A stretch of 64,000 bases of DNA, taken from contig NW_018407155.1 of NCBI RefSeq assembly GCF_002113885.1, positions 561,097 through 625,096 on the forward strand. The letters run 5' to 3'. The position numbers and the translations under genes were made by a program. Shown in pieces: positions 4,955 to 45,183 of the stretch. Source of the stretch: Mizuhopecten yessoensis. Its lineage: Eukaryota. Position 1 is the stretch's first letter. Every line of letters starts with the position of its first letter. The notes beneath the pieces were generated by a model. The model ran no database searches. It was not told the origin of the DNA and saw nothing but the letters and a program-made list of their open reading frames with translations.

Positions 4955-5001
4955 TTTTAATAATAAATTTATGTGTTATTTTGTCTTTTCAGGTAAGTGT
5001 T
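4955..5001 (+). promoter_or_regulatory. Candidate recursive splice site RS1 (3' splice site fused to 5' splice site)
   Basis: TTTAATAATAAATTTATGTGTTATTTTGTCTTTTCAG|GTAAGTGTT. AG at 4991-4992, GTAAGT at 4993-4998, about 40 nt free of AG upstream, weak TTAAT/TAAT branch candidates at 4957-4964. Confidence 0.7.
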
Positions 5002-5230
5002 TCTAGTGGAGAGATGAGTTTGTGTGGTGATGTCACAGTGCCTTGTGACCTTGGGGGAGGTGACCTTGGCTGGTGACCTCGTGTGACCTTGGGACAACGT
5101 GTGTATATGCTTCTACATATAATGGAGTGACAAAGGGTATAACAAAATAGTTAAATGAGGTGATAAACATTTTACTGTTGTATTACAAATCGTAATATAT
5201 GGAAGCATTGGGACGAAGTTTAATGTTACC

Positions 5231-5304
5231 TTAACTCATTCACCCCTGGAGTTTCATAATGAACTATTCAAACTTTTAAATTGGAAGAGTTCAAAAATGA
5301 GTTA
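5231..5304 (+). mobile_element. 83-bp TTAA hairpin MITE, subfamily A, partly deleted
   Basis: TTAA CTCATTCACCCCTG...TTGGAAGAGTTCAAA. Confidence 0.8.
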
Positions 5305-5337
5305 TATTATATATTTCAACACTACATCTCAAGTTTC

Positions 5338-5766
5338 TTGAAGTACATAGGTTTATTGGTGGAGAATTAGGTAGTATCTTTGGAGAAGTACATGGGTTTA
5401 TTGGTGGAGAAATACGGTAGTATCTTTGGGAGAGGTACATGGGCTTATTGGTGGAGAAATACAGTAATATATTTTGAGAAGTAGATGGGCTTATTGGTGG
5501 AGAAATATGGTAATATCTTTGGAGAAGTACATGGGCTTATTGGTGGAGAAATATGGTAACATATTTTGAGAAGTACATGGGCTTATTGGTGGGGAAATGC
5601 GGTAATATATTTTGAGAAGTACATGGGCTTATTGGTGGAGAAATATGGTAATACATTTTGAGAAGTACATGGGCTTATTGGTGGAGAAATATGGTAATAC
5701 ATTTTGAGAAGTACATGGGCTTATTGGTGGAGAATTATGGTAATATAATATATTTTGAGAAGTACA
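5338..5766. repeat. 46-bp minisatellite, ~9 copies
   Basis: Unit GAGAAGTACATGGGCTTATTGGTGGAGAAATATGGTAATACATTTT. Confidence 0.95.
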
Positions 5767-6297
5767 GTTCTTGTCAAGTGAAAAATATCTGGTAGCATTT
5801 AATGAAGGAAAAACAGCTGTGAGAGACAGGATGCAATAGGTCAACAGTGTGATGGAGGGACGATTCTACAATCTGTTCTGTCATTTAAAAATGCTCAGTT
5901 CGTTCCTGCTTTTCTCCATGTCTATGGATTTTAGTCACTAGTCTCTAAGTCTTGCTGGGAGTTTAACACTTCTTTGAAATTGAGCTTCCTATAAAAGGTC
6001 TCCTGTGTGTGTCGGTTGATAGGGTAACCATGGAAACATATTTGACAGTAATGTTAGAATTATGGGATGGCTTATCACGTCATTGGGGATGATATTTACT
6101 AAGACTGACACACAGAGTGGTTGTGATGGCCGGAGAGACATCTCCCTGGGACATTTCCTTGGTAACCATTTCCTAGTTTTGTAAGTAATGGACACTGACA
6201 CACATTGGGCAAACTTTAGGTAAATTTGGTTTAAGTGCTTTGAACCTTCGAAAGTCTGTCACATCTTGTATCCATGTTGTCAGTGACATGGTAAACC

Positions 6298-6640
6298 TTT
6301 GTTGTCGTGGTGACATTGCTGTGGTAGTTTGTTGTTGCCATGGTGACATTGCTGTGGTAGTTTGCTGTTGTCATGGTGACATTGCTGTGGTAGTCTGCTG
6401 TTGCCATGGTGACATTGCTGTGGTAGTCTGCTGTTGTCATGGTGACATTGCTATGGTGCTGTTGTTGCCATGGTGACATTGCTGTGGTAGTTTGTTGTTG
6501 CCATGGTTACATTGCGGTGGTAGTCTGCTGTTGTTATAATGACATTGCTGTGGTAGTTTGTTGTTGTCATGTTGACATTGCTATGGTAGTTAGTTGTTGT
6601 CATGTTGACAGTGATAGGGTAGATTGTTGTCATAGCAATA
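6298..6640. repeat. 33-bp minisatellite with X-box-like units
   Basis: Unit CATGGTGACATTGCTGTGGTAGTTTGTTGTTGC. It explains the CCCHGDIAVVV pseudo-ORFs. Confidence 0.95.
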
Positions 6641-6842
6641 GTTGTATGGTAGGCTCACAGTTGTGGTGGACCCTTGTTGTCAAAGTGCCAGTGTTATGAT
6701 AAGAAAGTTGGCAATGTAAGCTTTCGGTTGTCAAGGGGACATTGCTATGGTGATACTATTGTATGTTTGTTGTCAGTGATCAAATGGTCAACCCTTGTTG
6801 TCATGTAGTCAATCGTTATATAGCTGTTAACAGTAAAAATCA

Positions 6843-7275
6843 AGAGGCTTGTAACAGCAAAACTGTAGAGGCTTGTAGAGGCTTGTAACAGCAAAACTGT
6901 AGAGGCTTGTAGAGGCTTGTAACAGCAAAACTCTAGAGGCTTGTAGAGGCTTGTAATGGCAAAACTCTAGAGGCTTGTAGAGGCTTGTAATGGCAAAACT
7001 CTAGAGGCTTTCAACAACAAAACTCTAGAGGCTTGTAACAGCTTAACTATAGAGGCTTGTAAACTCTAGAGGCTTTTAATGGCTTGTAAAGGCTAAACTC
7101 TAGAAGCTTGTAATGGCTAAACTATAGAGGCTTGTAATGGCTAAACTCTAGAGGCTTGTAACGGCCTAACTCTAGAGGCTTATAGAGGGCTCGTAAAGGC
7201 TTGTGACGTCTAAACTCTAGAGTCTTGTAGAGGCTTGTAACGGCAAAACTCCAGAGATTTGTAACAGCTTAACTC
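6843..7275. repeat. Compound repeat of TAGAGGCTTG and TAACAGCAAAACTC modules
   Basis: Short modules of about 10 and 14 bp reiterated in mixed order. Confidence 0.9.
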
Positions 7276-7872
7276 GGGTTATGGAGGAAACAATTGCCAG
7301 CCTTTGTCAAGGTAGCCTATTCCTGTAACAGAATGAGCCTTACGACACACTTATAATAGATTCCATGTTTGTATGTTCCGTCTGTAATGGCCGGACCATT
7401 AACTCGACAGTTTACACCAGCCAGATGGCAGGTTTAATAGCCATTCCCTTTATTCCTGTTTCTACGATTCATAATTCATACAAACTTTGATGTGCATTGT
7501 TTCATGTTTTTATGCCACTCGTAATTTTCTATTAACTCATATACTGGGTGTATATATATATATATCTCCATGCTTTTTGCCACCATTCATAAATTCACAT
7601 AAGCTTTTGTCCTAATAGAATGTTTCTGTCGGGCTTGTATGAAGGCACTGTTACATTATCATTAAACTTTCATTGGTCTGCGTACATACAATAATGGTGA
7701 TGGACCTATAGCTCGTTAAATTTTGCTAATCTTGTGGACAGAGATGATCGAATAGATCCCTTAAAGAAAGAGAAGTCTCCGACATCTATTGCTAACATAT
7801 CTATGTTCTCTGTAAATGATAAGAAATCATTTTTAACTGTTCTTTGAATTCTCCCCCCCCCCCCCCCCCCCC

Positions 7873-8594
7873 NNNNNNNNNNNNNNNNNNNNNNNNNNNN
7901 NNNNNNNNNNNNNNNNNNNNNNNNNNNNNNNNNNNNNNNNNNNNNNNNNNNNNNNNNNNNNNNNNNNNNNNNNNNNNNNNNNNNNNNNNNNNNNNNNNNN
8001 NNNNNNNNNNNNNNNNNNNNNNNNNNNNNNNNNNNNNNNNNNNNNNNNNNNNNNNNNNNNNNNNNNNNNNNNNNNNNNNNNNNNNNNNNNNNNNNNNNNN
8101 NNNNNNNNNNNNNNNNNNNNNNNNNNNNNNNNNNNNNNNNNNNNNNNNNNNNNNNNNNNNNNNNNNNNNNNNNNNNNNNNNNNNNNNNNNNNNNNNNNNN
8201 NNNNNNNNNNNNNNNNNNNNNNNNNNNNNNNNNNNNNNNNNNNNNNNNNNNNNNNNNNNNNNNNNNNNNNNNNNNNNNNNNNNNNNNNNNNNNNNNNNNN
8301 NNNNNNNNNNNNNNNNNNNNNNNNNNNNNNNNNNNNNNNNNNNNNNNNNNNNNNNNNNNNNNNNNNNNNNNNNNNNNNNNNNNNNNNNNNNNNNNNNNNN
8401 NNNNNNNNNNNNNNNNNNNNNNNNNNNNNNNNNNNNNNNNNNNNNNNNNNNNNNNNNNNNNNNNNNNNNNNNNNNNNNNNNNNNNNNNNNNNNNNNNNNN
8501 NNNNNNNNNNNNNNNNNNNNNNNNNNNNNNNNNNNNNNNNNNNNNNNNNNNNNNNNNNNNNNNNNNNNNNNNNNNNNNNNNNNNNNNNNNNNNN
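7873..8594. other. Assembly gap following a poly-C run
   Basis: Run of N. Confidence 1.
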
Positions 8595-10221
8595 TGGTGA
8601 CATTGCTGTGGTAGTTTGTTGTTGCCATGGTGACATTGCTGTGGTAGTCTGCTGTTGTCATGGTGACATTGCTGTGGTAGTTTGTTGTTGCCATGGTGAC
8701 ATTGCTGTGGTAGTTTGCTGTTGTCATGGTGACATTGCTGTGGTAGTCTGCTGTTGCCATGGTGACATTGCTGTGGTAGTCTGCTGTTGTCATGGTGACA
8801 TTGCTATGGTGCTGTTGTTGCCATGGTGACATTGCTGTGGTAGTTTGTTGTTGCCATGGTTACATTGCGGTGGTAGTCTGCTGTTGTTATAATGACATTG
8901 CTGTGGTAGTTTGTTGTTGTCATGTTGACATTGCTATGGTAGTTAGTTGTTGTCATGTTGACAGTGATAGGGTAGATTGTTGTCATAGCAATAGTTGTAT
9001 GGTAGGCTCACAGTTGTGGTGGACCCTTGTTGTCAAAGTGCCAGTGTTATGATAAGAAAGTTGGCAATGTAAGCTTTCGGTTGTCAAGGGGACATTGCTA
9101 TGGTGATACTATTGTATGTTTGTTGTCAGTGATCAAATGGTCAACCCTTGTTGTCATGTAGTCAATCGTTATATAGCTGTTAACAGTAAAAATCAAGAGG
9201 CTTGTAACAGCAAAACTGTAGAGGCTTGTAGAGGCTTGTAACAGCAAAACTGTAGAGGCTTGTAGAGGCTTGTAACAGCAAAACTCTAGAGGCTTGTAGA
9301 GGCTTGTAATGGCAAAACTCTAGAGGCTTGTAGAGGCTTGTAATGGCAAAACTCTAGAGGCTTTCAACAACAAAACTCTAGAGGCTTGTAACAGCTTAAC
9401 TATAGAGGCTTGTAAACTCTAGAGGCTTTTAATGGCTTGTAAAGGCTAAACTCTAGAAGCTTGTAATGGCTAAACTATAGAGGCTTGTAATGGCTAAACT
9501 CTAGAGGCTTGTAACGGCCTAACTCTAGAGGCTTATAGAGGGCTCGTAAAGGCTTGTGACGTCTAAACTCTAGAGTCTTGTAGAGGCTTGTAACGGCAAA
9601 ACTCCAGAGATTTGTAACAGCTTAACTCGGGTTATGGAGGAAACAATTGCCAGCCTTTGTCAAGGTAGCCTATTCCTGTAACAGAATGAGCCTTACGACA
9701 CACTTATAATAGATTCCATGTTTGTATGTTCCGTCTGTAATGGCCGGACCATTAACTCGACAGTTTACACCAGCCAGATGGCAGGTTTAATAGCCATTCC
9801 CTTTATTCCTGTTTCTACGATTCATAATTCATACAAACTTTGATGTGCATTGTTTCATGTTTTTATGCCACTCGTAATTTTCTATTAACTCATATACTGG
9901 GTGTATATATATATATATCTCCATGCTTTTTGCCACCATTCATAAATTCACATAAGCTTTTGTCCTAATAGAATGTTTCTGTCGGGCTTGTATGAAGGCA
10001 CTGTTACATTATCATTAAACTTTCATTGGTCTGCGTACATACAATAATGGTGATGGACCTATAGCTCGTTAAATTTTGCTAATCTTGTGGACAGAGATGA
10101 TCGAATAGATCCCTTAAAGAAAGAGAAGTCTCCGACATCTATTGCTAACATATCTATGTTCTCTGTAAATGATAAGAAATCATTTTTAACTGTTCTTTGA
10201 ATTCTCCCCCCCCCCCCCCCC
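8595..10221 (+). repeat. Near-identical copy of 6308-7872 (offset 2353 bp), likely a false duplication
   Basis: Same 33-bp array, same compound repeat and same unique sequence, ending in the same poly-C. The two copies flank the gap. Confidence 0.9.
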
Positions 10222-11286
10222 CCCCTCCTCCTTTCACACCTTAAATTCCAGTAGCATAAAATAAGCAAAAGCTGATTATTTTATGTTAAACATTGAGAGA
10301 TGCAAATGTGTTAATATATTATTGTAGTTTTCTGCTCTAACAGCCAAAATTGATTGACCATTGATATTGTTAGATAGTTTGTGTTTCTTCGAAAGGGCAA
10401 CAGTAGAAATTGTTTGTAAAATGTAAAACGAGGACACTTTCGAGACCGTCCCTTTCAGTATTTGTGTCTTTGAGATTGCAGCATTATGCGAAAAGAACCA
10501 AAACAACATTGAAATGTAATTTGTTATATAAATAATTCACAGCTGGATGACTTCAGCTGTTAATAGTATGCATGTGAAACCCAATGAACCAAATCAAACC
10601 ATCTTAGAGACAGAAAAACGGTCAAATGACTGCACATGAAATGTTAAAATTGCAACAAACGGGGAAACCTATATCAGATGTTAAAGACACAACCGTAGCA
10701 GGTCCATTTGCAAGAGTGTTTTGGTCTGGTGAGTGCCGGTGTATCTCGTTTCACTACCATAACAGTGTTGGGAAGGTATAAAACGGGATAATAACTTGTA
10801 AGTGTTTAGCTGTGCAGCATATTGTTGCACTCTATGGCTCCTTTCGTTGCGTCGTGCCGTGACTGGACGGGGGGACCATCCACTCGTATTGTGGAGAAGT
10901 TTTATACAAAAACCTGTCTGTAATCACTTACGGAAATTTTCTCCAGATGGTTTCCGTTTGTAACTGGTTACATCAGAGAGCAGCCGTAATTACACGATGT
11001 GGAAAACCTTTTCTACTCCACGCTGACGGACGCTTCATTGGTGATGAGCAGTTACGAAGGACAAGATACAAACTCGCCGAAAAAAATAATTCAGTCAAAT
11101 ATTTCTTGCAAAATTTGCAGAATTAGTGTGTATGGGAAGAGTTTATAAGAGTTAATTATTATTCATGATAATTTGATTCAAAGGATTTTTTTTCACTTTT
11201 ATTATCTCGTTAGTGAGACAATATATATGCATAAACATGTTCCTAAATCGTAAACTTTCAAATTCAATTTGCAGAGTAATAGGCTA

Positions 11287-11491
11287 TACAGTCAAGCCTG
11301 TATTAAAGGGACCACCCTCGAGAAATCCAAAAAGGGGTCTCAGAACAAAGGTGGTCTCTTAATACAAGTTCTGTTTACTATTTAATCTTTTACAATGGCC
11401 AACATGTACAATGGCCTCATTACAAAGGTATTGGCCTCATCATGAAGGTGGTCTCTTAGTAGAGGTGGTCACATGACCAGGTTTGACTTTA
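11287..11491. mobile_element. Tc1/mariner-pogo-type MITE, ~200 bp
   Basis: TA-CAGTCAAGCCTG ... CAGGTTTGACTT-TA, with internal GGTGGTCTCTTA subterminal motifs. Confidence 0.7.
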
Positions 11492-11830
11492 TCGTTCTAT
11501 CCCCTACCCTTATCCTACAGTCTAAGACACCAGTCCTGGGTCTTCAAATTCCCTACCGACAGTAGATTCTGCTGGCTGTCGTATCTGGTCTTCTTAAAGA
11601 GGTGGTCACATGGGCAGGTTTGACTGTGTCGTTCTATCCCCTACCCTTATCCTACAGTCTAAGACACCAGTCCTAGGTCTTCAAATTCCCTACCGACAGT
11701 AGATTCTACTGGCTGTCGTACCTGGTCTAAAGCATGTTTGACTATCATTCTACCCCTTACCCTTACCATACAGGGGCCATGCGTCTTCAAATTCCCTACC
11801 ATAGGCTCTTCTGGCTGTCATACCTGGTTT
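11461..11830. repeat. ~137-bp tandem triplication that includes the MITE right end
   Basis: AGAGGTGGTCACATG..CAGGTTTGACT..CCCTACCCTTATCCTACAG at 11461 and 11598, with a degenerate third unit. Confidence 0.85.
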
Positions 11831-12507
11831 TGGGTTTCCCAACTGGTGTGTATAAGAGAGAGATTGGTGTCCGTGTTATCACAGAGTGAAGGATTATTGA
11901 GTATACTACTTAATGGGCTACAGTAAAACACTGTCCTGTCACTCACACAGTCATGATTAGGGGAAGTAGACATGTGCAGAGTATGATTTAAGGAAGTTTT
12001 GTCACTAGATTTTCTCCAATTCAGCCAAAACATAATTGTTATGTTTCTGCATTCGGCCTTCAAAATCAGAGTAGGTAGTGGATTTTTTTCTTTTTTCGGC
12101 AAAATATTTCTATGCAGTGTTTGTTTGTAATTAGGGGGGGGGAAAAGACAAGAGTTTTCACTAAACTTCAGGTAAAACTTTAAAAGTCCCTGAGTTCCGC
12201 TGGGTTTGTTACAATAATTGTCAACCTGATAGATCCTAGATTATTTCCTGTAAAATTTATCTCTGTAGAAACTAAACCAAGGCTAGGCTACAGGCAATAA
12301 ACAGAGACTCAAGTGTGGTACAAATTAGAATCAAGTCCTATCTCAACGTAGCTACTGTTACCGAAATGTCTGTTTTTTGTTTGGATTCCTCTCGTAATGT
12401 CAACACTTCCGTCATTGTTACACAGGTATGTAGTGTTTCTCCGTAATGTTAGAGTGTTAATCTTCATTATTACAGATTTTGAACTCGGGTTAAGCTTTGT
12501 TCACGCT

Positions 12508-12598
12508 CAAACTCATTCATCCCTGAAGACACATTTGAACTCTTCCAATTCAAACGTTGGAATAGTTCATTATGAAATTTCAGGGGTGAATGAGTTAA
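12508..12598 (-). mobile_element. 83-bp TTAA hairpin MITE, subfamily A
   Basis: CTCATTCATCCCTGAA ... TTCAGGGGTGAATGAG TTAA. Confidence 0.9.
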
Positions 12599-13049
12599 AG
12601 TTGACTTGATTTATAGGTCACAACTGGGTTGGCTTATTGAAGTGCTTTGTAAATCTGTTATCTCAAAAATCGTACTTATCTTATAATGTTTCCATTGAAA
12701 GATAACAAATTTTATGATGTTTGTTGCAGGTGACAAGGTTGAGATTTTTTACGTTATTTAGTGTAATTTTAAATGCTATTTTTTTCGTAAAACGGGAAAC
12801 GTATTGCTTGGTCACCTATGACCATGCCATGTATTAGTTTAGGCCTTCTGTATCAGTCTGCTTGACTTTATTGGAACTTATCGGAGCTCCCCTGTGTGGA
12901 GGTCACCAGGGTTACAGTCAAGTGGAACTCTCTAGTGTGAAGATCACAGAAGCTATGTCTGGTATGTGTCTGACCACCCTAATTGTAGATATCTAGAGGA
13001 TAAATAGCTGGTCCTGTCAGTGTGATATCAAATAATATGATGTCTTTTG

Positions 13050-13570
13050 GAGGGAATGAGGGGGTCGAGAGGAGGGGGAGGTGAGCGGGGGGGGGGGGGG
13101 GGGGGGGGGNNNNNNNNNNNNNNNNNNNNNNNNNNNNNNNNNNNNNNNNNNNNNNNNNNNNNNNNNNNNNNNNNNNNNNNNNNNNNNNNNNNNNNNNNNN
13201 NNNNNNNNNNNNNNNNNNNNNNNNNNNNNNNNNNNNNNNNNNNNNNNNNNNNNNNNNNNNNNNNNNNNNNNNNNNNNNNNNNNNNNNNNNNNNNNNNNNN
13301 NNNNNNNNNNNNNNNNNNNNNNNNNNNNNNNNNNNNNNNNNNNNNNNNNNNNNNNNNNNNNNNNNNNNNNNNNNNNNNNNNNNNNNNNNNNNNNNNNNNN
13401 NNNNNNNNNNNNNNNNNNNNNNNNNNNNNNNNNNNNNNNNNNNNNNNNNNNNNNNNAGGGGCGGCGAGGAGGGGGAGGTGAGAGGAGGGGGCGGCGAGGA
13501 GGCCGGGGCGGTGAGAGGGTCGGCAAGGAGGGGCAGGTGAGGAGGGGGACATGGAAGAGAAAAGGGGAAG
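13050..13570 (+). other. G-rich purine tract with poly-G, interrupted by an assembly gap at 13110-13456
   Basis: GGAGGGGG / GGGGCGGCGAGG runs on both sides of the N block. Confidence 0.9.
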
Positions 13571-14045
13571 GCATCAGGTCAAGGTACATGTCGATTAGTC
13601 TTTCCCAACACCATTATTGATTAATCTCAGTGATTGTTTTCTACAGTGTATACATTTTCTTTGGGTTAATTCTTATACCTGATTCTGAAGATTTGGTAGA
13701 AAAACATGTTAAAAAAGACCTTTGAATAAAAACCTAAGAGGCTCCTCAATATTTGTTTAAACAAATCTTCTTTCCATTCTTCACAAAAAGAAACTGGTTG
13801 AAATGAAGATGGAAAAGTGAGAAGGGACATTACACTGGCCTGTACATTCCGGTACTTGCAGTCAAAAACATATTTTAAGATATTGCAAAATTACTCCAGT
13901 CTATCATAATAATAAAGAACAGAAATATGGTCAACCTGCTATAGAGAATATGTCTCTATTAAGAGACCACTTTTAAAATTCCCTTTGCATTTATAGTCAT
14001 TGAAAACACATCTGTTAAAAGATAACCTGTGTTAAAAGACCACTT

Positions 14046-14136
14046 TTAACTCATTCACCCCTGAAATTTCATAATGGACTATTGCAACCTTTGAATCGGA
14101 AGAGTTCAAATGTATTTTCAGGGGTGAATGAGTTAA
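14046..14136 (+). mobile_element. 83-bp TTAA hairpin MITE, subfamily A, complete
   Basis: TTAA on both sides and 16-bp TIRs CTCATTCACCCCTGAA. Confidence 0.95.
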
Positions 14137-14272
14137 ATCCATATTGTTGTTATTTTCTACACCTTCATTAAGAGATTACTGTGTTATGAGACCACTTTTA
14201 AAATCCCTGATAGCAGGTATTTTCATGGTGGAGATCTTCTGCAATATTAAAAATGATATTAAAAGATTTGAC

Positions 14273-14540
14273 CTGCTGTAAGCATGTAATTGATTGATTT
14301 CCTGGTGGTGATCTCTTTATACAGGTTTTACTGTTGGTTCTGCTGTAAGAATTTAATTGATGGATTTCCTGATGGTGGTCTCTTTATACAGGTTTTACCA
14401 TTGGTTCTGCTGTAAGCATGTAATTGATGGATTTCCTGGTGGTGGTCTCTTTGTACAGGTTTTACCATTGGTTCTGCTGTAAGAATGTAATTGATGGATT
14501 TCCTGATGGTGGTCTCTTTATACAGGTTTTACCGGTGGTT
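14273..14540. repeat. 67-bp tandem repeat x4, each unit carrying a Tc1-like MITE end
   Basis: Units start at 14273, 14340, 14407 and 14474 and contain GGTGGTCTCTTTATACAGGTTTTAC. Confidence 0.9.
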
Positions 14541-15402
14541 CCACTTTGAACTGATATATTAGACTTAAACATTTATGTTGCAACTTTTTTTGACTTCGCC
14601 AAATTCTTCTGTAAAAAATGTCATTAATACATCGTCATACTCGGCTCCCCTAAAAAAAACTTGGTAGCTGCCCGGTAGAGATTTGTCTGTTAGATTAATT
14701 ATATGTAGTACAGAGGTGAATTAAAGTAGGAGTTGATAGATATACGATATTCTCAGCTTGATTTAAAGATGTTTTTATATCAAAATCAACTTATCTTATA
14801 CACGAGACCTGATATCAGATCCAACAAATGTCGCGATGATAAAAAAACAGACTTCCATGTTGTCGCCCTAGTCACTCCTCACTTTTCCTGTCAGTCAAAT
14901 ATTCATCGTGATATTTGACACTTCTGAGGCTGAAGTGTTTGCTGTTTATTCACTTTTTTTACCAGTATTTGTATGTGGTGTAATCTGTTTCTCTGTATGG
15001 TTTAAGACAGGGTAAGATTGTTTTGGTACTTTGTAGAATTCGGTAAGAAATCTATACTAGTAGTTGTACAACTAGATAGTTTTATTTCAACAATGTTTTA
15101 TTTTAAGTATAACCTTTCTGCAGTTTGAAATTCAAATTGTGTAAGGGAGGATGAAAAATGTCTTTAATTATACAAATATGAAAAACAATGAAAATGGGGA
15201 GGGGGAGGGGGGATCAAGAGTGAATGTGTAAAGCCCCCTTGGGACCCCCCATCCAGCCCTCCCAGAAACAGAAACTCATATTTGAATTAAAATATCTGTT
15301 TAAATATTTATTCCATACATTGAAACAGTAAATAATTGGCATAATAGAAAAATCAGACACCTGGTCAAAATGTGTTCAGCCCCATTTCAATAAGAAAAAA
15401 AT

Positions 15403-21455: not shown

Positions 21456-21485
21456 CTGTAGCTATCTGTTGCTTGCTACACTGTA

Positions 21486-33828: not shown

Positions 33829-35452
33829 CACAGCATCAGTGGGCATCAGAGACTGTACTCTACAACATCAGTGGGCATCAGAGACTGTACTCTACAGCAT
33901 CAGTGGGCATCAGGGACTGTACCCTACAGCATCAGTGGACATCAGAGACTGTACTCTACAGCATCAGTGGACATCAGAGACTGTACTCTACAGCATCAGT
34001 GGGCCTCAGAGACTGTACTCTACAGCATCAGTGTGCATCAGAGACTACTCTACAGCATCAGTGGGCATCAGAGACTATACTCTACAGCATCAGTGGGCAT
34101 CAGAGACTGTACTCTACAGAATCAGTGGGCATCAGAGACTGTACACTACAGCATCAGTGGGCATCAGAGACTGTACTCTACAGCATCAGAGGGCATCAGA
34201 GACTGTACTCTACAGCATCAGGGGGCATCAGAGACTACCCTACAGCATCAGTGGGCATCAGAGACTGTCTCTACAGCATCAGTGGGCATCAGAGACTCTA
34301 CTCTACAGCATCAGTGGGCATCAGAGCCTGTACTCTACAGCATCAGTGGGCATCAGAGGCTACTCTACAGCATCAGTGGGCATCAGAGACGTTACTCTAC
34401 AGCATCAGTGGGCATCAGAGACTATCCTCTACAGCATCAGTGGGCATCAGAGACTCTACTCTATAGCATCAGTGGGCATCAGAGACTGTACTCCACAGCA
34501 TCCGTGGGCATCAGAGACTGTACCCTACAGCATCAGTGGCCATCAGAGACTGTACTCTACAGCATCAGTGGGCATCCGAGACTGTACCCTACAGCATCAG
34601 TGGACATCAGAGACTGTCCTCTACAGCATCAGTGGGCATCAGAGACTGGACTCTACAAAATCAGTGGGCATCAGAGACTGTACACTACAGCATCAGTGGG
34701 CATCAGAGACTGTCTCTACAGCATCAGTGGGCATCAGAGACTCTACTCTACAGCATCAGTGGGCATCAGAGCCTGTACTCTACAGAATCAGTGGGCATCA
34801 GAGCCTGTACACTACAGCATCAGTGGGCATCAGAGACTGTCCCCTACAGCATCAGTGGACATCAGAGACTACTCTACAGCATCAGTGGGCATCAGAGCCT
34901 GTACTCTACAGCATCAGTGGGCATCAGAGACTATCCTCTACAGCATCAGTGGGCATCAGAGACTGTACTCCACAGCATCCGTGGGCATCAGAGACTGTAC
35001 CCTACAGCATCAGTGGCCATCAGAGACTGTACTCTACAGCATCAGTCGGCATCAGAGACTGTACTCTACAGCATCAGCGGGCATCAGAGACTGTACTCTA
35101 CAGCATCAGCGGGCATCAGAGACTGTACTCTACAGCATCCGTGGGCATCAGAGACTACTCTACAGCATCAGGGGGCATCAGAGACTACCCTACAGCATCA
35201 GTGGGCATCAGAGACTACCCTACAGCATCAGTGGGCATCAGAGACTGTCTCTACAGCATCAGTGGGCATCAGAGACTCTACTCTACAGCATCAGTGGGCA
35301 TCAGAGACGTTACTCTACAGCATCAGTGGGCATCAGAGACTATCCTCTACAGCATCAGTGGGCATCAGAGACTGAACTCTACAGCATCAGGGGGCATCAG
35401 AGACTACTCTACAGCATCAGTGGGCATCAGAGACTGTACTCTACAGCATCAG
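33829..35452. repeat. 32-bp minisatellite with 29/30-bp variants, ~51 copies
   Basis: Unit TACAGCATCAGTGGGCATCAGAGACTGTACTC. It is the source of the 551 and 563 aa pseudo-ORFs. Confidence 0.97.
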
Positions 35453-36921
35453 TACTGCTCAGCCTCCCACATTCCTGTAGCATTGAGTCAGTAGATCTGG
35501 GCATTGACTAGATATGATGATGTGCCAGATAAAGAGGATCATAAATTATATAGGGGGGGGCCCTATCTATTGCCTGTGTGAATAACTTAATATCATAATT
35601 TGATCTACGGCCCCTTAATGGTCTGAACTGTTCATTAAATGTTGACCCCCCCTCCATGCACACACCAATTACTACACACAGAATCGGCTGGCTGCAGACA
35701 TCACGTCTACTGTGATTCACTTACTCCCTAAATCATTGTGATACCATGCAGTTTGGACATCCCGTTAGAGTTCCTAACATCCCGTTAGAGTTCCTAACAT
35801 AGATGTTTCCTGCACCAGCATTTCACCATGAAAAAGATAAACAATTATCATGTCCAAGACAACAACAGTTCAAAAAAAAAATTAAAAAATTTCGGCTTCA
35901 TCTGAAAAATGAAATTAGAAATGACAATATCTTAGGAAGATAAGGCTGTAAATTTGCAAAATAGTTAAAGAGACGCAAACCAAACCTCTCATTAGTAAAC
36001 TTCAATAGATATTGATCTTCTTCCTCTTTAAGGTCTGTTACACAGACCTATTACCAGTTGAAAAAAGCCCCTCTGAATTCCACCAACTTGTTGAATATTT
36101 TTGGGTATGCAAATAATTCTATAAAGTCTGGAAAAATAAATCAAATAAAGCATTCCATTTCACAATTACAGGAATTTTTTTCTTAGAATTACTGATTTTT
36201 CTTAATTTCCATTCAGTGTCGACTGTTTCCCAGAATGCACTGTTAAATCCTATGTGTTAATCTATGATGGAAGTAGATGATTTATCAGAATTACGATGAA
36301 AACGAGAAAGGTATCATGCCCTTAAAATCTGTTCATTGTAAAAGTCCTTAAAAGGTGACGTGACCTTAAATTCTATTTACTGCAGAAAATTCACAGAAAT
36401 TAATGAAATTTGTGTGTGAAATATTGGTATGAACCGAGTACCTGTCCTTTAGCGAAAGAAGATTACAGAACGACACGTTAATCTCTACAGCAACTGTTTG
36501 AACGTCTATTACAGTGAGTTTAAGTATTTCCTGACGATTGAAAGCCTGGTAATTTGTGCAGAGTTGTTTTAACACTGGGGGATGGGTATGTCATAGGTAC
36601 ACATCACAGCCCATGTGAGAACACGCGTAATAGATTATAAGTGGGGAGAGAAATCGTGGAATCGCTTCAGAAAGTCGAAAGTGGTGAGGTGTGGTACTAT
36701 TGGGGAAGCTAATTGTTGTGATGGGTAATTAAACCTGCGAGAGTCGTCCATTTTGTAGTGTGATTAGTGAGAATTTCCTTTGCTGTATCAACTAACGTAC
36801 AATAAGTTACAGCAATATTTGGAGCACTCCATATACTGGTGTTATGTACTATATAAACTGTAGTAAGAAAATGCTGTACTGTATCAACTAGTGTCAGTAA
36901 ATTACAGCAATATTTAGAACA

Positions 36922-37175
36922 CCATAATTGCCAACTCTCCCGATTTAGGAGGGAGACTCCCGATTTTGGACCCTTAAATTTGGTAGTTTCAGCCCAGAGA
37001 GTTTTCTAAACTATACTTATATGCTAAGATCTAATGATCTCATCTGAAAGATCAACTCAACATATGTAATTTTAAAGGGTTATTTGTCTCTAGGGGGTAT
37101 ATACAAACATTTTATTTGAGTGTTAATTGTGAACATTTAGAATCCCACCCATGGAAGCTTTAGAAATTTAAAATA
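36922..37175 (-). mobile_element. Inverted copy of the 4444 MITE family
   Basis: CATAATTGCCAACTCTCCCG... followed by internal CATCTGAAAGA and GTCTCTAGGGGGTATAT. Confidence 0.7.
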
Positions 37176-37674
37176 CCCATTAGGATCTCTGGATGAAGAT
37201 ATCATACGAAACAGGCTTAGAAATAATTGATCTCGTTAGTGTGGCGATATTGTCTACCTCCACTGTACTGTCTGAAGAACTACTACACTACTGTTTTAGC
37301 TCTTGTAACATTTATCAGGGAGGCCAATAAACTCGTAATTAAAATGGTGCTTTTACACGACTGGCTTTGGGAGTGTAATACAGACCTAAGGGAAGGTTTT
37401 CGTTACATAATGTACTTTTATGGCTTCAGTTATTTCCGGACGACAGAATAATGAATAAGGGATTAGTAGAATTGGGTTTTCTAGAATGCTTGATTGTTAA
37501 ATTGCCGATCAGTAGCTGTGAATGTTTATGGAGTTTGCGACAGTTTGGTGCAATTTCATGACTATAAAGTTAACTGTATTCATTGTAAAATACCCAAAAT
37601 AGGAACATCACCAGGCAATATTGTGTGGGAGAACAAAAATAAAAAGGTACCTCCTGCCTGTCCATCAAGGTCTC

Positions 37675-37765
37675 TTAACCCTTTCACTACTGTAGACCAT
37701 AATGGACTCATCCAGATCAATGCATGGTAGAGCCTACTAAAGTTACATAGGGGTGAAAGGGTTAT
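37675..37765 (-). mobile_element. 83-bp TTAA hairpin MITE, subfamily C
   Basis: Both TIRs and the left TTAA. Confidence 0.92.
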
Positions 37766-38017
37766 ACCTAAAACACAATACATGTTAGATAATAACAGAT
37801 TGTTGTCATTCAGCAGTATGGTAATTCACAAATAAAAACTGTGTAAATAAGTTTTATTAAGAAAGCGTTCCAGCTCTTTGCTCTTTGCTCTATGCTCCTA
37901 AACTAGTCTAGCGTATTGCAGACCAAATTACACTGGATCCTTCTTCCGAAGAAAGCCGAAGTCTGGTCTATTTGTCTTTGAAACTGTCCACAGCTTCTCT
38001 TAAAAACAACAACATGT

Positions 38018-38450
38018 CAGCTTTCTTTTTCTGTTGAAAGCCGTCATTGTCTATTCCAGTAAGCTGGTTTCTTTGCCTTTTTTTCCTGTTGAAAGCCTCA
38101 TGTTCTCTGTTTGAGTGAGCTGGTTTGTTGCCTTCTTTTTCTGTTAAAAGCCATCAAGTTCTCTGTTTGAGTGAGCTGGCTTGTTGCCTTCTTTTCCTGT
38201 TGAAAGCCATCAAGTTCTCTGTTTAGTGAGCTGCTTTCGTTGATTTCTTTTTCTGTTAAAAGCCATCAAGTTCTCTGTTTGATTGAGCTGGGTTTTTTTT
38301 TCTGTTGAAAGCCATCAAGTTCTCTGTTTGATTGAGCTGGGTTTTTTTTTCTGTTGAAAGCCATCAAGTTCTCTATTCGAGTGAGCTGCTTTGTTCCCTT
38401 CTTTTTTCTGTTGAAAACCATCAAGTTCTCTATCCTAATAAGCTAGTTTC
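38018..38450. repeat. ~50-56-bp degenerate tandem repeat, ~8 copies
   Basis: TTCTGTTGAAAGCCATCAAGTTCTCTGTTTGAGTGAGCTG reiterated. Confidence 0.9.
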
Positions 38451-38947
38451 ATCTTATCCAATGTTGATGTATTCCTGAGCATTACAAGGGGATGCTGTTG
38501 GAGCGCCGCTACAGCGTACCGTTACAGACTACCGTTACAGAGTACCGCTACGACAGGCGCTACGACAGGCGTTACGACAACAGCTTGTTTATTTGTGACA
38601 CTCTCAATATGGTCAGTGCTGATCTGGTTAGGCGGTATGGTTCGTCTGGCCACTTACTTATTCAACTTCAGACAAGCTGTGTACTGTAGTACAGAGAGGG
38701 CCTAGAATTATCCCGTAACACCTGAGGGTCTGTACAGAGCATAAAGATGGCTTAGATTTATGAAGGTACCATGAAAACTGCTTCAATATCAACATAAAAA
38801 AAAGAAAAAAGATGTACTACAAAAGTGCTTGAATTTGGAATAGAGTCCTGAAGAGTGGTTATATATAAAAATCAAATGGTTTAGCATGCTTGAATGTTTG
38901 TTAAAAATCTCTGCATGAACCCAAAGCTCCTTGGCAAAATAATGTTA

Positions 38948-39122
38948 CATGTGCCATCCCCTTATATAGGTGAGAATTTTACCCGTGCAGCTCATAAAAC
39001 AGGTGAGAATTTTACCTGTGCCATCCCCTTATACAGGTGAGAATTTTACCTGTGCAGCTCATTATGCAGGTGAGAATTTTACATGAGCCACCCCTGATAC
39101 AGGTGAGAATTTTACCTGTACC
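38948..39122. repeat. ~34-bp tandem repeat x5
   Basis: TGTGCCATCCCCTTATACAGGTGAGAATTTTACC. Confidence 0.9.
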
Positions 39123-39167
39123 ACAAAGCCTGTCAAAGAAAAAATTATACAACAATCTTCTGGTTAA

Positions 39168-39258
39168 TTAACTCATTCACCCCTGAAATTTTATAATGAA
39201 ATATTCCAACCTTTGAATTGGAAAAGTTCAAATGTGTCTCCAGGGGTGAATGAGTTAA
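39168..39258 (+). mobile_element. 83-bp TTAA hairpin MITE, subfamily A, complete
   Basis: TTAA on both sides and both TIRs. Confidence 0.95.
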
Positions 39259-40046
39259 GAATGATGAAATTAATTTTCAATATTGAAATATTGCAGCAAT
39301 ATACAGAGGGGTCTCGCATTTTAAGTCTTATTTAAAAATATTCTTACTTTCGCGAAAATTGAGGGAATCTTACCATACTTTGCTGTTAATTGTTTTGTTT
39401 AAGATGTCATTAATCAGAGAAGTTGTTGAATGACGGAGCCCTGATGTGGGATTGTGTCATGGTCGCCAGACGCCCTCAGGGGAAGGGTGTAGATGTAATT
39501 CTCGTAACCTGATGGTAACGATTTTCTGGTTCTCACAGAACAAATCATTAAAGAGAAGAACCTGCATCACATATTTGTTAAAGTTTTGATAATTTGTATA
39601 AACTCATGTACAGTTATGTGTGTAATGAAAGATAATGGATATATAATGTCTAACCATGCATCACTATAGATTCCGAACATCAGGATCTCCTCCTAATAGT
39701 TGCACTTCAGTAAAAAGTTAATAAGAATTATCAGGGTACCAGTAGTATCTATAAAGATAAATGTACATTTTAACTGGGAAATTACTTTGACATTAAGAAG
39801 ATTTAGAATGACATATATCTTCCTAAAGAAATAAAATTTACAGATTGAATTTTCAAGATGGGTTGTTTTGTAATCTGTTCAAATGTGTGTGTTTTTTTTA
39901 AATATTCCGAAGTTTTAAGTAAATATGAAGGATTGTTTGGCAAACAGCTGAAAATGCTGAGGAGAAAATTTACTCATACAGTCGTAAATATACCTGCAAA
40001 CGAATTGGTGATGGAAAAAAGTGCCACTGATGTGTGGAGTAAACTA

Positions 40047-40137
40047 TTAACTCATTCATCCCTACATGTCTAAACTGGACTTGCCCAGTCTTTGAATTGG
40101 TAAGGTTCAAATGTGACTTTAGGGGTGAATGGGTTAA
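40047..40137 (+). mobile_element. 83-bp TTAA hairpin MITE, subfamily B, complete
   Basis: TTAA on both sides and both TIRs. Confidence 0.93.
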
Positions 40138-40637
40138 GAAAAGTGCTATCTTTGAATGTGTTGGTTTCATTATTCAGCCTCCGACACTTTTATTGTCCAT
40201 TAGAGAGTTCGGCAGCTTTCAACCAAGCAAAAGTCTAACAGAACTGCATCACAATTAAAAAAGATACATTACAAATAAATTGTTTGAGTGATTTAAAAAG
40301 ATATGCTAGAAATAAAAGCGATAAAGCAAATAAATTGATGCCTTTATCAGCTTTATTATCACCTGTTGAAGGATCCGGGGAGAACAGACGGTATAAAGTC
40401 GTAGCGTTTCAGAAAATATTCCGGTTCAGAAGTAGTAAGTGTCTTGTTAAAATTCCGCCAAGTTTTAATCTGGTTTTATGTTTAAGTCTTGCGTACTCTT
40501 GATTGTGTGGCATAGGACTGATTGACAGGTAAGGGGAGATAATAAGGAATAAGACTATCACGTATTATAAGGTGAATGTAAGATATTTGAAAACTTTTTG
40601 TTTAATACAGAAAAACCTGTATATAAGCCAACCTTCT

Positions 40638-40728
40638 TTAACTCATTCACCCCTGAAGCCACATTTTAACTCTTCAAATTCAAAGGTTGAAATAGTTCAT
40701 TATGAAATTTCAGGGGTGAATGAGTTAA
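40638..40728 (-). mobile_element. 83-bp TTAA hairpin MITE, subfamily A, complete
   Basis: TTAA on both sides and both TIRs. Confidence 0.95.
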
Positions 40729-40825
40729 GATACCACTGTAAGTATTCCTTGTCTTGGTGAGTTTTGTGTGAATTGAGCCTGCATTTACAGTGTTACAGTT
40801 CACCTGCAGTAAAAGACCAACTGTA

Positions 40826-41320
40826 AGGGAAATATGATTGTTTGAGGGAAATATGATTGTGTCGGAGAAGTATGACAGTGTGAAGGAAATGAGGGAAATA
40901 AAAAAATGAGGAAAATATGATTGTTTGAGGGAAATAAGATTGTGTGAGGAAAATATGATTGTTTGAAGGAAATAAGATTGTGTGAAAAAATATGATTGTT
41001 TGAGGGAAATAAGATTGTGTGAGGAAAATATGATTGTTTGAGGTAAATAAGATTGTGTGAGGAAAATATAATTGTTTGAGGGAAATAAGATTGTGTGAGT
41101 AAAACATGATTGTTTGAAGGAAATAAGATTGTGTGAAGAAAAATTGATTGTTTGAGGGAAATAAGATTGTGTGAGGAAAAAATGATTATTTGAGGGAAAT
41201 ATGACTGTTTCAGGGATATATAAATGTGAGGGAAATGAGGAAAATATGATTGTGTGAGGGAAATATGGACGTGAGGGGAAATATGAGGATGGAAATATGA
41301 TTGTTAGGAGGGAAATTTAA
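40826..41320. repeat. 19-bp minisatellite organised as a 38-bp dimer
   Basis: GAGGGAAATAAGATTGTGT and GAGGAAAATATGATTGTTT alternate. Confidence 0.93.
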
Positions 41321-42245
41321 TTGCCTGAGTTACAAATTCCCTAAAGGAATTATATGAGCTCTTATTTGATTTTATCTGGATTGATAACTGCGTTATAGTA
41401 CAGTGATGCGCGTGTCCTCCTTCTGTAACCCCGGTACATTTCAATACATCAGTACAGCACGACATAAATCTATTTCCTTAATCAATTTCAAATATTGATT
41501 TTACCTCCATTCCAGATTTCAATGTACTCTTCACCCGATATGATGTCCGTGCAATTAGTTAAGCTTGTACTTGTCAGGTTTCTCACAGCCAAGCGACACG
41601 TGCATCCCAAGTACTAACTGTCATGTCAGATAGGTGTTGATCTGTCACGGATGCCATTACGTTGTAAAAAATGAAAACAAAACACAGAAGATAGATCTTG
41701 CTCATTATTTGGTGATGTACAGATCAAGACCTGCCTTCCTTCAACTTGCATGCCTCGCTGACGTTTTAATTGTCTGGATAGCGGAAAACCTGTTAAGATT
41801 GTTAAGAGGAAACACCTTCAGCAATCCAATAGTTTCTATTGTACATTTGTGGGTCTGATTTTTGTTGTCGTTTGGAATTTCAGAAATTGTGGAGATATGT
41901 CTGCCATGCATGATAGATAGAAAAGTTATGTAGAGGTTCTCAAGACAAAACTATGTGTGTTTTACAAATGTGGCAGTGTTTATATAAATGCAGGGTTCGA
42001 TTCGTGAAAATAACGTCTGTGACTTTATCAAGTGATAGCACCTGATGTCTGAAGGGGATAACAACACGCGATAAGTAACATGTCATGTTCTGCAGAAATT
42101 AATTTTCTACATGATAATTATTAATAAAATTTATTACATTTGTAAAAGCAAATTGTTACGATGTAAGAAATGCTGGAGAAAGTAATCTGGGTTAAGGTTT
42201 GGTCATTTTGATTTTCTTTCAGCATGTTGGTTTTATAATGTTATG

Positions 42246-42580
42246 CTGGGTTAGATTCCCCGATTGGACTTGAAAAGGTATGGGGTCACCTGTCTGACCA
42301 TGTGGGCTTTCTACAAATGCTCAAGTTTCCTCCCAACATTGATTAAGACACACACACACACACACCCCTCTCCATCCTCCCTGCCATACATCCCTGCCAA
42401 CAAGATCGAGTGATTAATATAAGTTGAAATGACATGTTTCATAATCAATCATTAAGACTCAGTTTGTTTTGAACACAAACAGAAATTGAAAACTTATTTG
42501 CGAGCTTAGCCCCAAACTGACGATTCTTATTCTGAATATTGTTTCATAATTGTTGTAAAATAAATAAAGTTTATATATAT
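42246..42580 (+). mobile_element. V-domain-like SINE copy, 5' truncated, with a (CA)n insertion
   Basis: GGTTAGATTCCCCGATTGGACTTGAAAAGGTATGGGGTCACCTG... matches the 15403-15645 element. Confidence 0.75.
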
Positions 42581-42779
42581 GACTCTGTGAATCAGTTCAG
42601 ACTTAGACGATCTTCCATTACAGACAACCTGTGTCATTAGTGATACAGGGTTCCCTCTGACCTTGTGTCGTTGCTGAGGGAAGCTGGTGGATTAGGTGAT
42701 ACTTGTCCATATGTCACTGTCCTGTATCACTGTCAGTGTGGCCACTGACCATGAAATTAACAACTCGTTAGACACCTGA

Positions 42780-43210
42780 TACTGGTCAGCTTGACCACCA
42801 CACTGACCACTACAAACAAGACTAAGCTTTATAGCTTAACCACTAATTCAGCTCATTTCCCCTATGACCTCATTTTCCCCAAAATATTTAGGTAAGACCT
42901 GGACAGAATCACTGAATTAAGATTTTGGTCAGTTTGACTGTTACAGTGACCGGAGTGCACAATCAGCTTTGAAATTTAGCCATTAATTACGCTCATTTCC
43001 TCATTAACCTCATTTTCCCCCCAGATATGGAGGGAAGTCCCCGACAGAATCACTAAATTAAAATTGTATATATATATATGGTTTGCTTGACCTTGACCGC
43101 TACAGTGGCCAGAGGACAAGACTTGGCTTTATAGCTCATTTTATATTTGACCTCAATTTTTCCTGAAGTATTTAAGATAATCCCTGGCAGAATCACTAAA
43201 TTAGGATTAC
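42780..43210. repeat. ~140-150-bp degenerate tandem repeat x3
   Basis: GCTCATTT...ACCTCATTTTCCCC...CAGAATCACTAAATTA occurs three times. Confidence 0.75.
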
Positions 43211-43344
43211 TGGAGTAATGTGATCATATTCATCCTTCATTGAAGATAAGCCTTGTTTAACACAGTTTCCAGACATAGATATTCCATGATGACCTGAAGC
43301 ATGTCTTGGAGAATTTTGTAAATATTTGGGGTTCGTACCATCAT

Positions 43345-43458
43345 ACATGCAGGGTTCATACCATTGTAAATGTAAGGATCATACTGTCATAAATGCAGGG
43401 TTCATACCATTGTAAATGTAAGGATCATACTGTCATAAATGCAGGGTTCATACCGTCG
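43345..43458. repeat. 46-bp tandem repeat x2.5
   Basis: ATGCAGGGTTCATACCATTGTAAATGTAAGGATCATACTGTCATAA. Confidence 0.85.
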
Positions 43459-44537
43459 TTAAGGCCGGGTTTTGTATCGTTAATGCATTTTAATCCTAAG
43501 TTGAAGTTGAAGCTTATTTGAGACTATTCTGAAATGTCTTGTATAAGTTTGAATTCAATGTATAAAAGAATGAATGACCTGCTATTACTGAAACAGTGCG
43601 ACTCGAAAAATTCCAGAAAAGTTTCTGTTCTGTAAACAGTCGCTTGTAATAATTCCTGGGGTTGAGCTTTCTATTCAGATCGAGGATCCCCTCAGAACTG
43701 TAAATATCGTAAAATAAAAATCATTCAGAAGCGTTGTAATGTCCTATAAATTGATAAAATGTGTATTTTGAATGTAAGTGGAGTTTGTGGGTACAGGCAG
43801 TGCAGTTTCGTAAACTTCATTACCTGGATACTCAAGAGGCTGAGACAAAGTAGATTATGATTTTTCATTTCGGAGAAAACCTAGAAAACCTAATTACGAG
43901 AATTGCTGATCTAATTGCACAACTTCAGTAGCGAACGCGGTAAATTAATTACGAACTTCCTTTTCTTTTCACATGCTATTGATATGATAAAGTGTTTAAA
44001 AAAAAAATCTACTCGTGTGCATGATGTGCAGCGTATATTCCTTAATATTTTGATTTTAAAAAAATAAAATGGTGATGCTTGTAATGAAGAATATAGACAT
44101 TTTTGACGTTTGATTGAGGGAAATATTTCTTTTGACAGTTTGTCACTTTTTGTAGTTTGTCCTTTCAGTGGTATGAATGATTCTGAAAACCCCAAAGCAT
44201 CATGGGAACCTCTTACGGAATAGAAATTAATGGCTGCCATGTTGGTTTTGCAGCTTAACTAATCATGAAGTTTAATTTGTTGCCAACATTTAACATCTTT
44301 CATGGAACTACTTGCTTCTAAGCTGTTTTTGATGTGCAAGTCATTTGTAATACATTGGCATAGCTTAGGAAAAATTCATCTGTACCAGCTAACATGGTAT
44401 GGTGTCCATTTAAATCATTGTAATACAATGTCAAATTAAAGTTCTTATAGCGATGAAGCATGAAATACAGCATCACAACAAAAGTTTGAAAGCCATTAGT
44501 GTTCGAAAAGGGTCTAAATAATTGGCCCATGGCATAG

Positions 44538-44730
44538 AGGGATTCCCCAGAGCTATATTTAGAATAGATGGTTTCCAATGTGATTCAGGTAATTCCCTAC
44601 AGCTATATTTAGAATAGATGGCTTCCATTGTGATTCAGGGAATTCCCTACAGCTATATTTAGAATAGATGGCTTCCATTATGATTCAGGGATTTCCCTGC
44701 GGCTATATTTAGAATTTATGGCATTCAGTG
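44538..44730. repeat. ~50-bp tandem repeat x4
   Basis: CCCTACAGCTATATTTAGAATAGATGGCTTCCATTGTGATTCAGG. Confidence 0.9.
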
Positions 44731-44986
44731 TGAACTTTGGAATATTTTACCATTTATATCAGGATGAGGTTTCTTAAATCACATAAAGTCAACTTTATAT
44801 TCACATTGATAGTTTTTCTCATCAATTAATTTTGTATTCTCTCATCCAAAACATTCAATTGCTTATAAGTATTTGTCCATTATATAAAATATATTTACTT
44901 TGAATGGAGTCTCAAAATCTTGCCTGATAAATCAGACAACAGCAGATATTGTTTTAGAATAACAAAAAATATGTACCACACTTAAA

Positions 44987-45077
44987 TTTGCTCATTCATC
45001 CCTGAAGACACATTTGAACTCTTCCAGTTCAAAAGTTTGAAAAGTTCATTATGCAATTTAAGGGGTGAATGAGTTAA
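44987..45077 (-). mobile_element. 83-bp TTAA hairpin MITE, subfamily A
   Basis: Both TIRs. It ends ~40 nt upstream of the RS3 branch site. Confidence 0.9.
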
Positions 45078-45114
45078 GTAGTTCACAATTTTCTGTGTTT
45101 ATTATATTGTAATC

Positions 45115-45152
45115 CTAATATTTTCTTTTCTTTGTCTTTGTAGGTAAGTGTT
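45115..45152 (+). promoter_or_regulatory. Candidate recursive splice site RS3
   Basis: CTAAT branch site at 45115-45119, tract TTTTCTTTTCTTTGTCTTTG, TAG|GTAAGTGTT with AG at 45142-45143. Confidence 0.78.
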
Positions 45153-45183
45153 GATCAAGTGCTGAAGGAGATGGCTGATCTTA

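Follow-up and report, generated by a model that had tools for sequence, protein, structure and literature searches.

The first intron of a neogenin/frazzled-like gene in the scallop Mizuhopecten yessoensis, 188 kb in length, is very probably removed in steps, with exon 1a being re-spliced from one recursive splice site to the next; we put the probability at roughly 85%. Three of these putative sites lie in the stretch analysed here, 64,000 nucleotides (nt) of contig NW_018407155.1 (C3828:561097-625096; referred to as the window). Their acceptors and donors, a genome-wide class of similar sites and assembled contigs that begin exactly at one of the acceptors carry this interpretation.

Putative recursive splice sites in the first intron of a neogenin-like gene

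On the plus strand, the three motifs read GTAAGTGTT-TCT-AGTG (4993-5008), GTAAGTGTT-CC-AGTG (21515-21529) and GTAAGTGTT-GATCA-AGTG (45144-45161), each directly 3′ of a YAG, exactly as reported in a preliminary description of the window. They are the only occurrences of AG|GTAAGT in the window, and the minus strand carries none. All three sites have 14 to 18 pyrimidines between positions −23 and −4, AG-free zones of 41 to 60 nt and the donor GTAAGT, i.e. strong 3′ and 5′ splice sites juxtaposed at YAG|GT (Table 1). The same description considered the flanks to be non-homologous, and this holds: beyond +9, local alignment scores were 12 to 18, whereas random ones had a median of 15 and reached 20 at the 95th percentile. 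None of 100 dinucleotide shuffles reached three matches to the motif pattern (mean 0.04). As the pattern had been derived from the same three sites, this comparison is post hoc, and the pattern therefore needed testing elsewhere.

The context examined comprised the window plus 110 kb upstream and 90 kb downstream. Downstream exons encode immunoglobulin and fibronectin type III domains and a membrane segment, the best match being the neogenin-like M. yessoensis protein P0001. Mapping of P0001 exon by exon placed exon 1a, which encodes the signal peptide and ends AAAG|GTAAGA, at C3828:451197-451284 and exon 2 from position 638896; relative to the window, exon 1a lies some 110 kb upstream and exon 2 some 14 kb downstream. 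The intervening intron contains five sense AG|GTAAGT sites with strong acceptors, namely the three in the window and two upstream of it (C3828:518836 and C3828:534575), and no GTAAGT site with a strong acceptor on its antisense strand. The five sites split the intron into segments of 67.6, 15.7, 31.5, 16.5, 23.6 and 32.7 kb. Exactly nine letters, GTAAGTGTT, are common to four of the five, which diverge at +10; sites 534575 and 45144 have 12 letters in common. At all five, a stop codon in the exon-1a frame follows within 2 to 7 codons (p = 0.03, post hoc). At site 4993 this is the TAG at 5004-5006, and the downstream donor candidates are weak only. At site 45144, a candidate cryptic exon of 61 nt extends up to ACT|GTATGT (45205), a downstream donor proposed from sequence only.

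Contigs consistent with the first splicing step

Two runs of assembled contigs, X1 and X2, bear on the use of these sites. They stem from one study, are RNA by guess only and show neither level nor strand. On exon 1a, X1 contains the junction between exon 1a and exon 2, a 33-nt piece ending at intron position +5 and a long contig reaching into the exon's own intron. Another piece of 34 nt departs from exon 1a's own intron at +6 and ends at +9, its last four letters being a misfit to that intron. At site 45144, an 892-nt contig of X1 aligns from 45142 with 19 foreign letters ahead and runs to 46013; an 888-nt contig of X2 carries 16 foreign letters ahead and is likewise unbroken to 46013. Given words of 31 letters, a branch after +9 predicts 19 foreign letters before the site AG and a branch after +12 predicts 16. 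Both lengths are those expected for exon 1a, and the contigs are therefore read as exon 1a joined to 45144, that is, as RNA leading from the exon 1a donor to the site AG and on into the intron. The word length is the index value, which we assume was also used in contig assembly.

By the same length arithmetic, the foreign letters would be the end of exon 1a, and exon 1a appears to be spliced to 45144 in both runs. In X2 it also seems to be joined to 534575, and in X1 to either 4993 or 21515, one of which is required by the branch after +9. A second splicing step using the regenerated donor is presumed to follow. The contigs of X1 and X2 are flat in depth, and the raw runs are too shallow for a sawtooth profile. 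Two further observations were not used as evidence: the missing cover upstream of 45144 in the first bin together with the missing X3 cover of that site, and 12 runs in which the site-21515 stretch had small word shares. In sum, the view of the preliminary description that the sites are recursive is supported by their sequence, their position, the first-step junction and, at the level of the class described below, cryptic exons with a downstream donor.

A genome-wide class of sites with a fixed acceptor register

Twenty-seven sites form a class that combines the fixed-register acceptor TGTCTTTNYAG with the donor GTAAGT and cryptic downstream donors. It was assembled from 90 loci with 37 distinct matches, of which we kept those having 15 or more pyrimidines and an AG-free zone of 20 nt or longer; the other ten were dropped as weak or tandem, and one further match had no locus. 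The register found in neogenin gave 20 matches genome-wide against 5 in the control. For YYYTGTCTTTNYAG|GYAAGH the numbers were 17 and 3, and all 17 carried GTAAGT although +2 could also be C and +6 also A or C. The same letters with the register moved by one base gave 27 matches against 29. Left free, position −10 was G in 14 of 20 sites and T in none, and position −8 was C in 15 of 24. TTTGTCTTTTCAG is present in 142 copies, and GTAAGT follows in 7 of the first 100 listed. Of 24 ordinary acceptors in neogenin, none had TGTC in the class register. What the sites share most strongly lies on the acceptor side (TGTCTTTNYAG), where the preliminary description had missed it.

The first 60 to 150 nt downstream of class sites are G-rich, with a G content of 0.26 that declines to about 0.19. 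A downstream donor at a distance of 30 to 100 nt was found at 12 of the 27 sites compared with 6.2% expected (p = 2e-8), and this excess fades with distance. Several class sites occur in clusters oriented with the exons of their hosts, which were named from PDB sequence matches (Pfam matched 3 of 11 exon fragments). Two sites lie inside a 169-kb intron between RRM exons of a TIA-1/TIAR-like gene. Clusters upstream of same-strand exons comprise four sites at an AMPK-gamma-like, three at an RBPMS/couch-potato-like and three at an EGFR-like gene. Single class sites with unassigned host genes are located on C306, C690, C2300, C4188, C4370, C4512, C4613, C4717, C5367, C5471, C76723 and C82157.

Could such sites be chance or repeat-derived look-alikes without a role in splicing? 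A strict all-pyrimidine acceptor followed by GTAAGT is indeed unenriched genome-wide (54 matches against 123 in the backwards control, which may be inflated), ten of the 37 matches had to be discarded as noted above, and one of three metagenome matches to the 20-mer TTTGTCTTTTCAGGTAAGTG falls within a bacterial gene. The enrichment is register-specific, however, the clusters share the orientation of their host exons, the flanks of the sites are not homologous and the contigs begin exactly at the AG, all of which makes look-alikes extremely unlikely. A common repeat origin was rejected as well: in blastn comparisons among 20 loci, matches at the sites were confined to the T-rich tract and the core, and the flanks score as random. 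The two other metagenome matches (L266:1501-1520 and L268:1501-1520) are in eukaryote-like non-coding DNA of records with a shared name prefix and have AG-free zones of 52 and 43 nt, L266 with a second GTAAGT about 55 nt downstream; the match within the bacterial gene is L267.

Preference for G at +7 without AGTG or extended U1 pairing

The preliminary description regarded the donor extension, GTT at +7 to +9 followed by AGTG, as a lineage-specific signature of recursive sites that reinforces pairing with U1 small nuclear RNA (snRNA) or binds a factor. We compared the 23 class sites outside neogenin with 350 background GTAAGT from 848 kb in ten tests. G at +7 was present in 13 of the 23 compared with 84 of the 350 (p = 0.0013), and GTT at +7 to +9 in 5 compared with 13 (p = 0.003). 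T at +8 is not enriched given G at +7 (6/13 vs 32/84), and G at +7 therefore carries most of the signal. In a control of purine-rich exon ends inspected by eye, which are not verified donors, G at +7 occurred in 10 of 51 and GTT in none. AGTG within +7 to +25 was absent from all 23 class sites of other genes and present in 38 of the 350 background donors, which disqualifies it as a class signature. The proposed signature is thus retained as to G or GTT at +7 and given up as to AGTG. Sites collected genome-wide with the strict polypyrimidine pattern contain GTT in 2 of 54 cases.

AGTG may nevertheless matter within neogenin itself. In this alternative, GTGTT-N(2-5)-AGTG is a neogenin-specific element, and a factor bound to it keeps one recursive donor after another paired with the exon-1a end. 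AGTG is found at three of the five neogenin sites and a fourth, C3828:534575, has GTT followed by CGTG; the fifth, C3828:518836, has neither at that spacing. The pattern also recurs in the last 35 nt of exon 1a and has 8 sense compared with 2 antisense copies in 264 kb. It was, however, chosen after the sites had been viewed and has variable spacing, the strand count falls to 5 versus 2 once the three sites are subtracted, the exon-1a copy encodes signal-peptide residues, and AGTG is missing from the class sites of other genes. We consider such an element unlikely. AGTG is likely a chance feature of the G-rich cryptic-exon sequence. The exon-1a copy has the form GTGTT-N4-AGTG (L031:160-172; C3828:451256) and lies in the exon that would join each site; it may have arisen by chance from signal-peptide codons.

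Longer pairing with an snRNA, either U1 or, in U6, the bases that immediately precede the ACAGA box, is another conceivable reason for selection of G or GTT 3′ of the donor. G at +7 and T at +8 can pair with U1, with one wobble. In addition, the U6 of this genome has CGAU before ACAGA, so that GTTG could add four pairs, and 6 of the 23 other sites reach three to four contiguous ones. Against such pairing, A at +7, the Watson-Crick partner for both U1 and U6, is rare (2/27 compared with 31% of background), AT at +7/+8 is absent from all 27 sites, [A/G]T is not enriched (6/23 vs 70/350, p = 0.32) and the score for an extended U6 helix is not significant (p = 0.10). Flies moreover favour T at +7, the partner of neither RNA. 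The U1 5′ end is canonical in all 12 loci read out of 18 matches. As there is no variant U1 among them and AT does not occur, U1 offers no explanation for the preference at +7; a variant U1 or extended U1 pairing was rejected on the loci and sites read, and the reinforcement proposed in the preliminary description finds no support. Selection for snRNA pairing in general appears improbable. The G preferred at −10 was considered in the light of U2AF2, in which G at −9 is neutral and most other guanosines cost about three-fold according to PMC9128377. This tolerant central site was rejected as the reason, since neutrality explains no preference.

Site 21515 as a coding exon

Site 21515, the only one of the three acceptors in the window outside the fixed register, opens an exon that occurs in mRNA, as the annotated isoform P0128 and the Pecten maximus protein P0004 start with its peptide. 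ATG 21761, preceded by five upstream ATGs, starts an alternative N-terminus of 27 residues that resembles a signal peptide; in the exon-1a frame, a stop follows after 5 codons. Among 18 scallop isoform N-termini, 16 derive from exon 1a, two from the site-21515 exon and none from anything else, a count that untranslated or unstable inclusion would escape. Judging from these protein sequences, site 21515 doubles as an expressed exon that apparently swaps the signal peptide. The ends of the two signal-peptide exons are alike and in the same phase, GTGAAG|GTAAGAC (window 21761-21845) and GTGAAAG|GTAAGAC (exon 1a), which hints at an old exon duplication.

This exon leads to the question of whether all sites are simply acceptors of ordinary poison or cassette exons, with the downstream donor in use, the initial GTAAGT idle and the message degraded or, at 21515, kept. 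The early in-frame stops at all five neogenin sites, the enrichment of downstream donors in the class, the annotated exon at 21515 and the limitation of junction support to the first step would all fit. On the other hand, an idle donor does not account for a full GTAAGT in 17 of 17 sites at which other letters were permitted, the contigs of X1 and X2 pass the candidate downstream donor unbroken for about 870 nt, and the spacing of the sites resembles that of fly segments, which have a mean of 18 kb. Ordinary poison or cassette exons thus seem distinctly improbable, and recursive splicing remains the preferred interpretation.

Table 1. Features of the neogenin/frazzled-like intron 1 (window coordinates unless a contig is given).
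Feature	Position	Strand	Remarks
Neogenin/frazzled-like intron 1	C3828:451285-638895 (contains window 1..64000)	+	187,611 nt; from exon mapping of P0001
Acceptor of site 1	4952..4992	+	41-nt AG-free zone, T-rich tract, fixed register TTGTCTTTTCAG
Putative recursive donor GTAAGT of site 1	4993..5008	+	GTT at 4999-5001, AGTG at 5005-5008
Acceptor of site 2	21462..21514	+	51-nt AG-free zone, UG-rich tract ending GTGTTGTAG; outside fixed register
Exon opening with putative recursive donor GTAAGTGTT (site 2)	21515..21839	+	325 nt; N-termini of isoform P0128 and Pecten maximus P0004
Downstream donor AAG|GTAAGA of site-21515 exon	21840..21845	+	Phase identical to that of exon 1a; followed by exon 2 in P0128
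Acceptor of site 3	45082..45143	+	60-nt AG-free zone, fixed register TTGTCTTTGTAG
Putative recursive donor GTAAGT of site 3, with GTT and AGTG	45144..45204	+	AGTG at 45158-45161; in-frame TGA at +9 to +11
Contig stretch at site 3	45142..46013	+	Unbroken in X1 and X2, starts at site-3 AG, about 870 nt into intron

Repeats and other features near the sites

A compound tandem repeat of 1.6 kb with units of 56 to 68 nt (window 19849-21439) ends about 75 nt 5′ of the site-21515 acceptor. Another set of tandem repeats occurs twice (window 6299-7264 and 8595-9617), flanking an N gap, and is possibly an assembly duplication. A palindromic dispersed element of about 90 to 180 nt, very abundant in RNA contigs, has copies at window 44990-45080 and 47770-47860; a half copy precedes site 45144 by about 65 nt, and many other loci have similar copies nearby. 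In the AMPK-gamma cluster, a long transposase-like open reading frame (ORF; L167:2286-3722, C5245:162286-163722), which we take to be piggyBac-like, lies 2 kb 5′ of the first site. Between two class sites there is an exon-like ORF containing RRRS/RRGS motifs (L170:8213-8494, C5245:198213-198494), which has no Pfam match and may serve the AMPK-gamma-like gene as an alternative first exon.

Discussion

How might the sites work? Each would first be recognised as a short G-rich cryptic exon, thanks to its strong acceptor and a weak donor further downstream, and would be linked to exon 1a. The donor AAG|GTAAGT restored in this way could then outcompete the downstream donor, so that the cryptic exon would leave with the next intron segment, and the early in-frame stops would dispose of mis-spliced products. 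The class signature TGTCTTTNYAG|GTAAGT with its preference for G at +7 would be recognised at the 3′ splice site by a protein and not by U1. The preliminary interpretation was half right: recursive sites with a stereotyped acceptor are probable, and G or GTT at +7 is a partial preference of the class, leaving AGTG and U1 reinforcement unsupported.

Several points weigh against recursive splicing. Junction support covers the first step only, with neither lariats nor a sawtooth observed, and the final product of recursive splicing equals that of one-step splicing. The identity of the foreign letters is length arithmetic on a word length of 31 in two runs of a single study with RNA status by guess, and the raw-read runs X19, X22 and X23 are too shallow, with 1, 0 and 6 reads on exon 1a and no junction between exon 1a and a site among them. 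The first 67.6-kb segment of the intron is without any site; 4.7 kb of it is N. The class patterns require part of the register, and sites without it, such as 21515, are therefore undercounted. The AMPK-gamma, cpo and EGFR clusters were placed by downstream exons only, and with the relaxed donor GTRAG the cpo region gave four antisense compared with three sense matches with strong acceptors. For AGTG at three of the five sites in neogenin, the naive probability is 1.4e-4, and a post hoc pattern is the sole explanation offered. Finally, the identifiers used for fly Egfr and TIA1-like genes have no rows in the S2-cell table of PMC6110457; the same is true for those of cpo.

Drosophila ratchet points are similar in many respects. 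They too are tandem acceptor|donor sites in very long introns, several per intron and with segments of tens of kb, and include a short cryptic recursive-splicing (RS) exon with a weaker downstream donor, a layout described in PMC8605326. The hosts overlap in fra/neogenin, SNF4Agamma and cpo. According to PMC6110457, a 26.7-kb intron of fly fra holds two recursive sites, and SNF4Agamma has a single site of high confidence; two are reported for cpo. Fly hosts of ratchet points with cryptic RS-exons comprise Ubx, kuz, Bx, luna, cpo and fra (10.1101/006163, PMC8605326, PMC6110457), and the 197 ratchet points listed by gene by Duff et al. (10.1101/006163) bear on the overlap as well. Gene overlap alone is no proof of common descent, because 63-70% of very long fly introns are recursive.

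At the level of sequence, C at −8 is frequent in scallop and fly alike (fly 14/25 among the rows listed, by eye). The scallop class is small and far more stereotyped, with 27 sites found by the present patterns compared with more than 500 in flies. G at −10, prevalent in the scallop, is absent from 25 fly GTAAGT sites among the rows listed. At +7, the scallop favours G and the fly T, and A is avoided in both: fly AG|GTAAGT ratchet points in PMC6110457 have T in 24, C in 8, G in 4 and A in 1 case, and GTT in none of 37. The acceptor TTGTCTTTTCAG also occurs, combined with different donors, at two fly ratchet points (rows 13 and 132 of the table in PMC6110457), one of them in Hs6st. In the scallop, RNA support extends to the first step only.

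The site-21515 exon is reminiscent of expressed RS-exons such as Ubx mI/mII and those of vertebrates (Sibley 2015 as summarised in PMC5126111 and PMC8605326). Like these, it opens on a full donor, is followed by a downstream donor of its own and contains stops in the upstream frame. Unlike them, it provides an alternative start codon and signal peptide and not an internal in-frame piece. It may be reached by splicing, either from exon 1a or from a different first exon, or be transcribed from a promoter of its own. RNA support for recursive splicing has been reported in flies and vertebrates, and a 2024 preprint covers flies, mice and humans. A computational enrichment of RP-sites in insects and sea urchin was described by Shepard et al. 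(PMC2773006), whose species table lists no mollusc. Their sense-strand excess of combined sites in introns longer than 50 kb resembles our observations; the parts covered differ in that they contain neither RNA junctions nor an extended motif. A literature search found no paper on recursive splicing in molluscs.

As a tentative extension, which we regard as possible at best, recursive splicing of long introns in fra/neogenin, cpo and AMPK-gamma may be ancestral to flies and molluscs, the scallop using a near-fixed 17-nt element, UGUCUUUNCAG|GUAAGU(G), that would be read by a dedicated ratchet-site factor, with one ratchet co-opted as a signal-peptide switch of the netrin receptor.

The locus provides a junction-level lead for recursive splicing in a bivalve together with a list of sites that is short and sharply defined. 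A signature fixed at G(−10)/C(−8)/G(+7) lends itself to mutation and pull-down far more readily than the loose consensus of flies, which is of interest for the question of how ratchet acceptors are separated from ordinary ones by the spliceosome. Finally, hosts shared with flies make the age of the mechanism testable.

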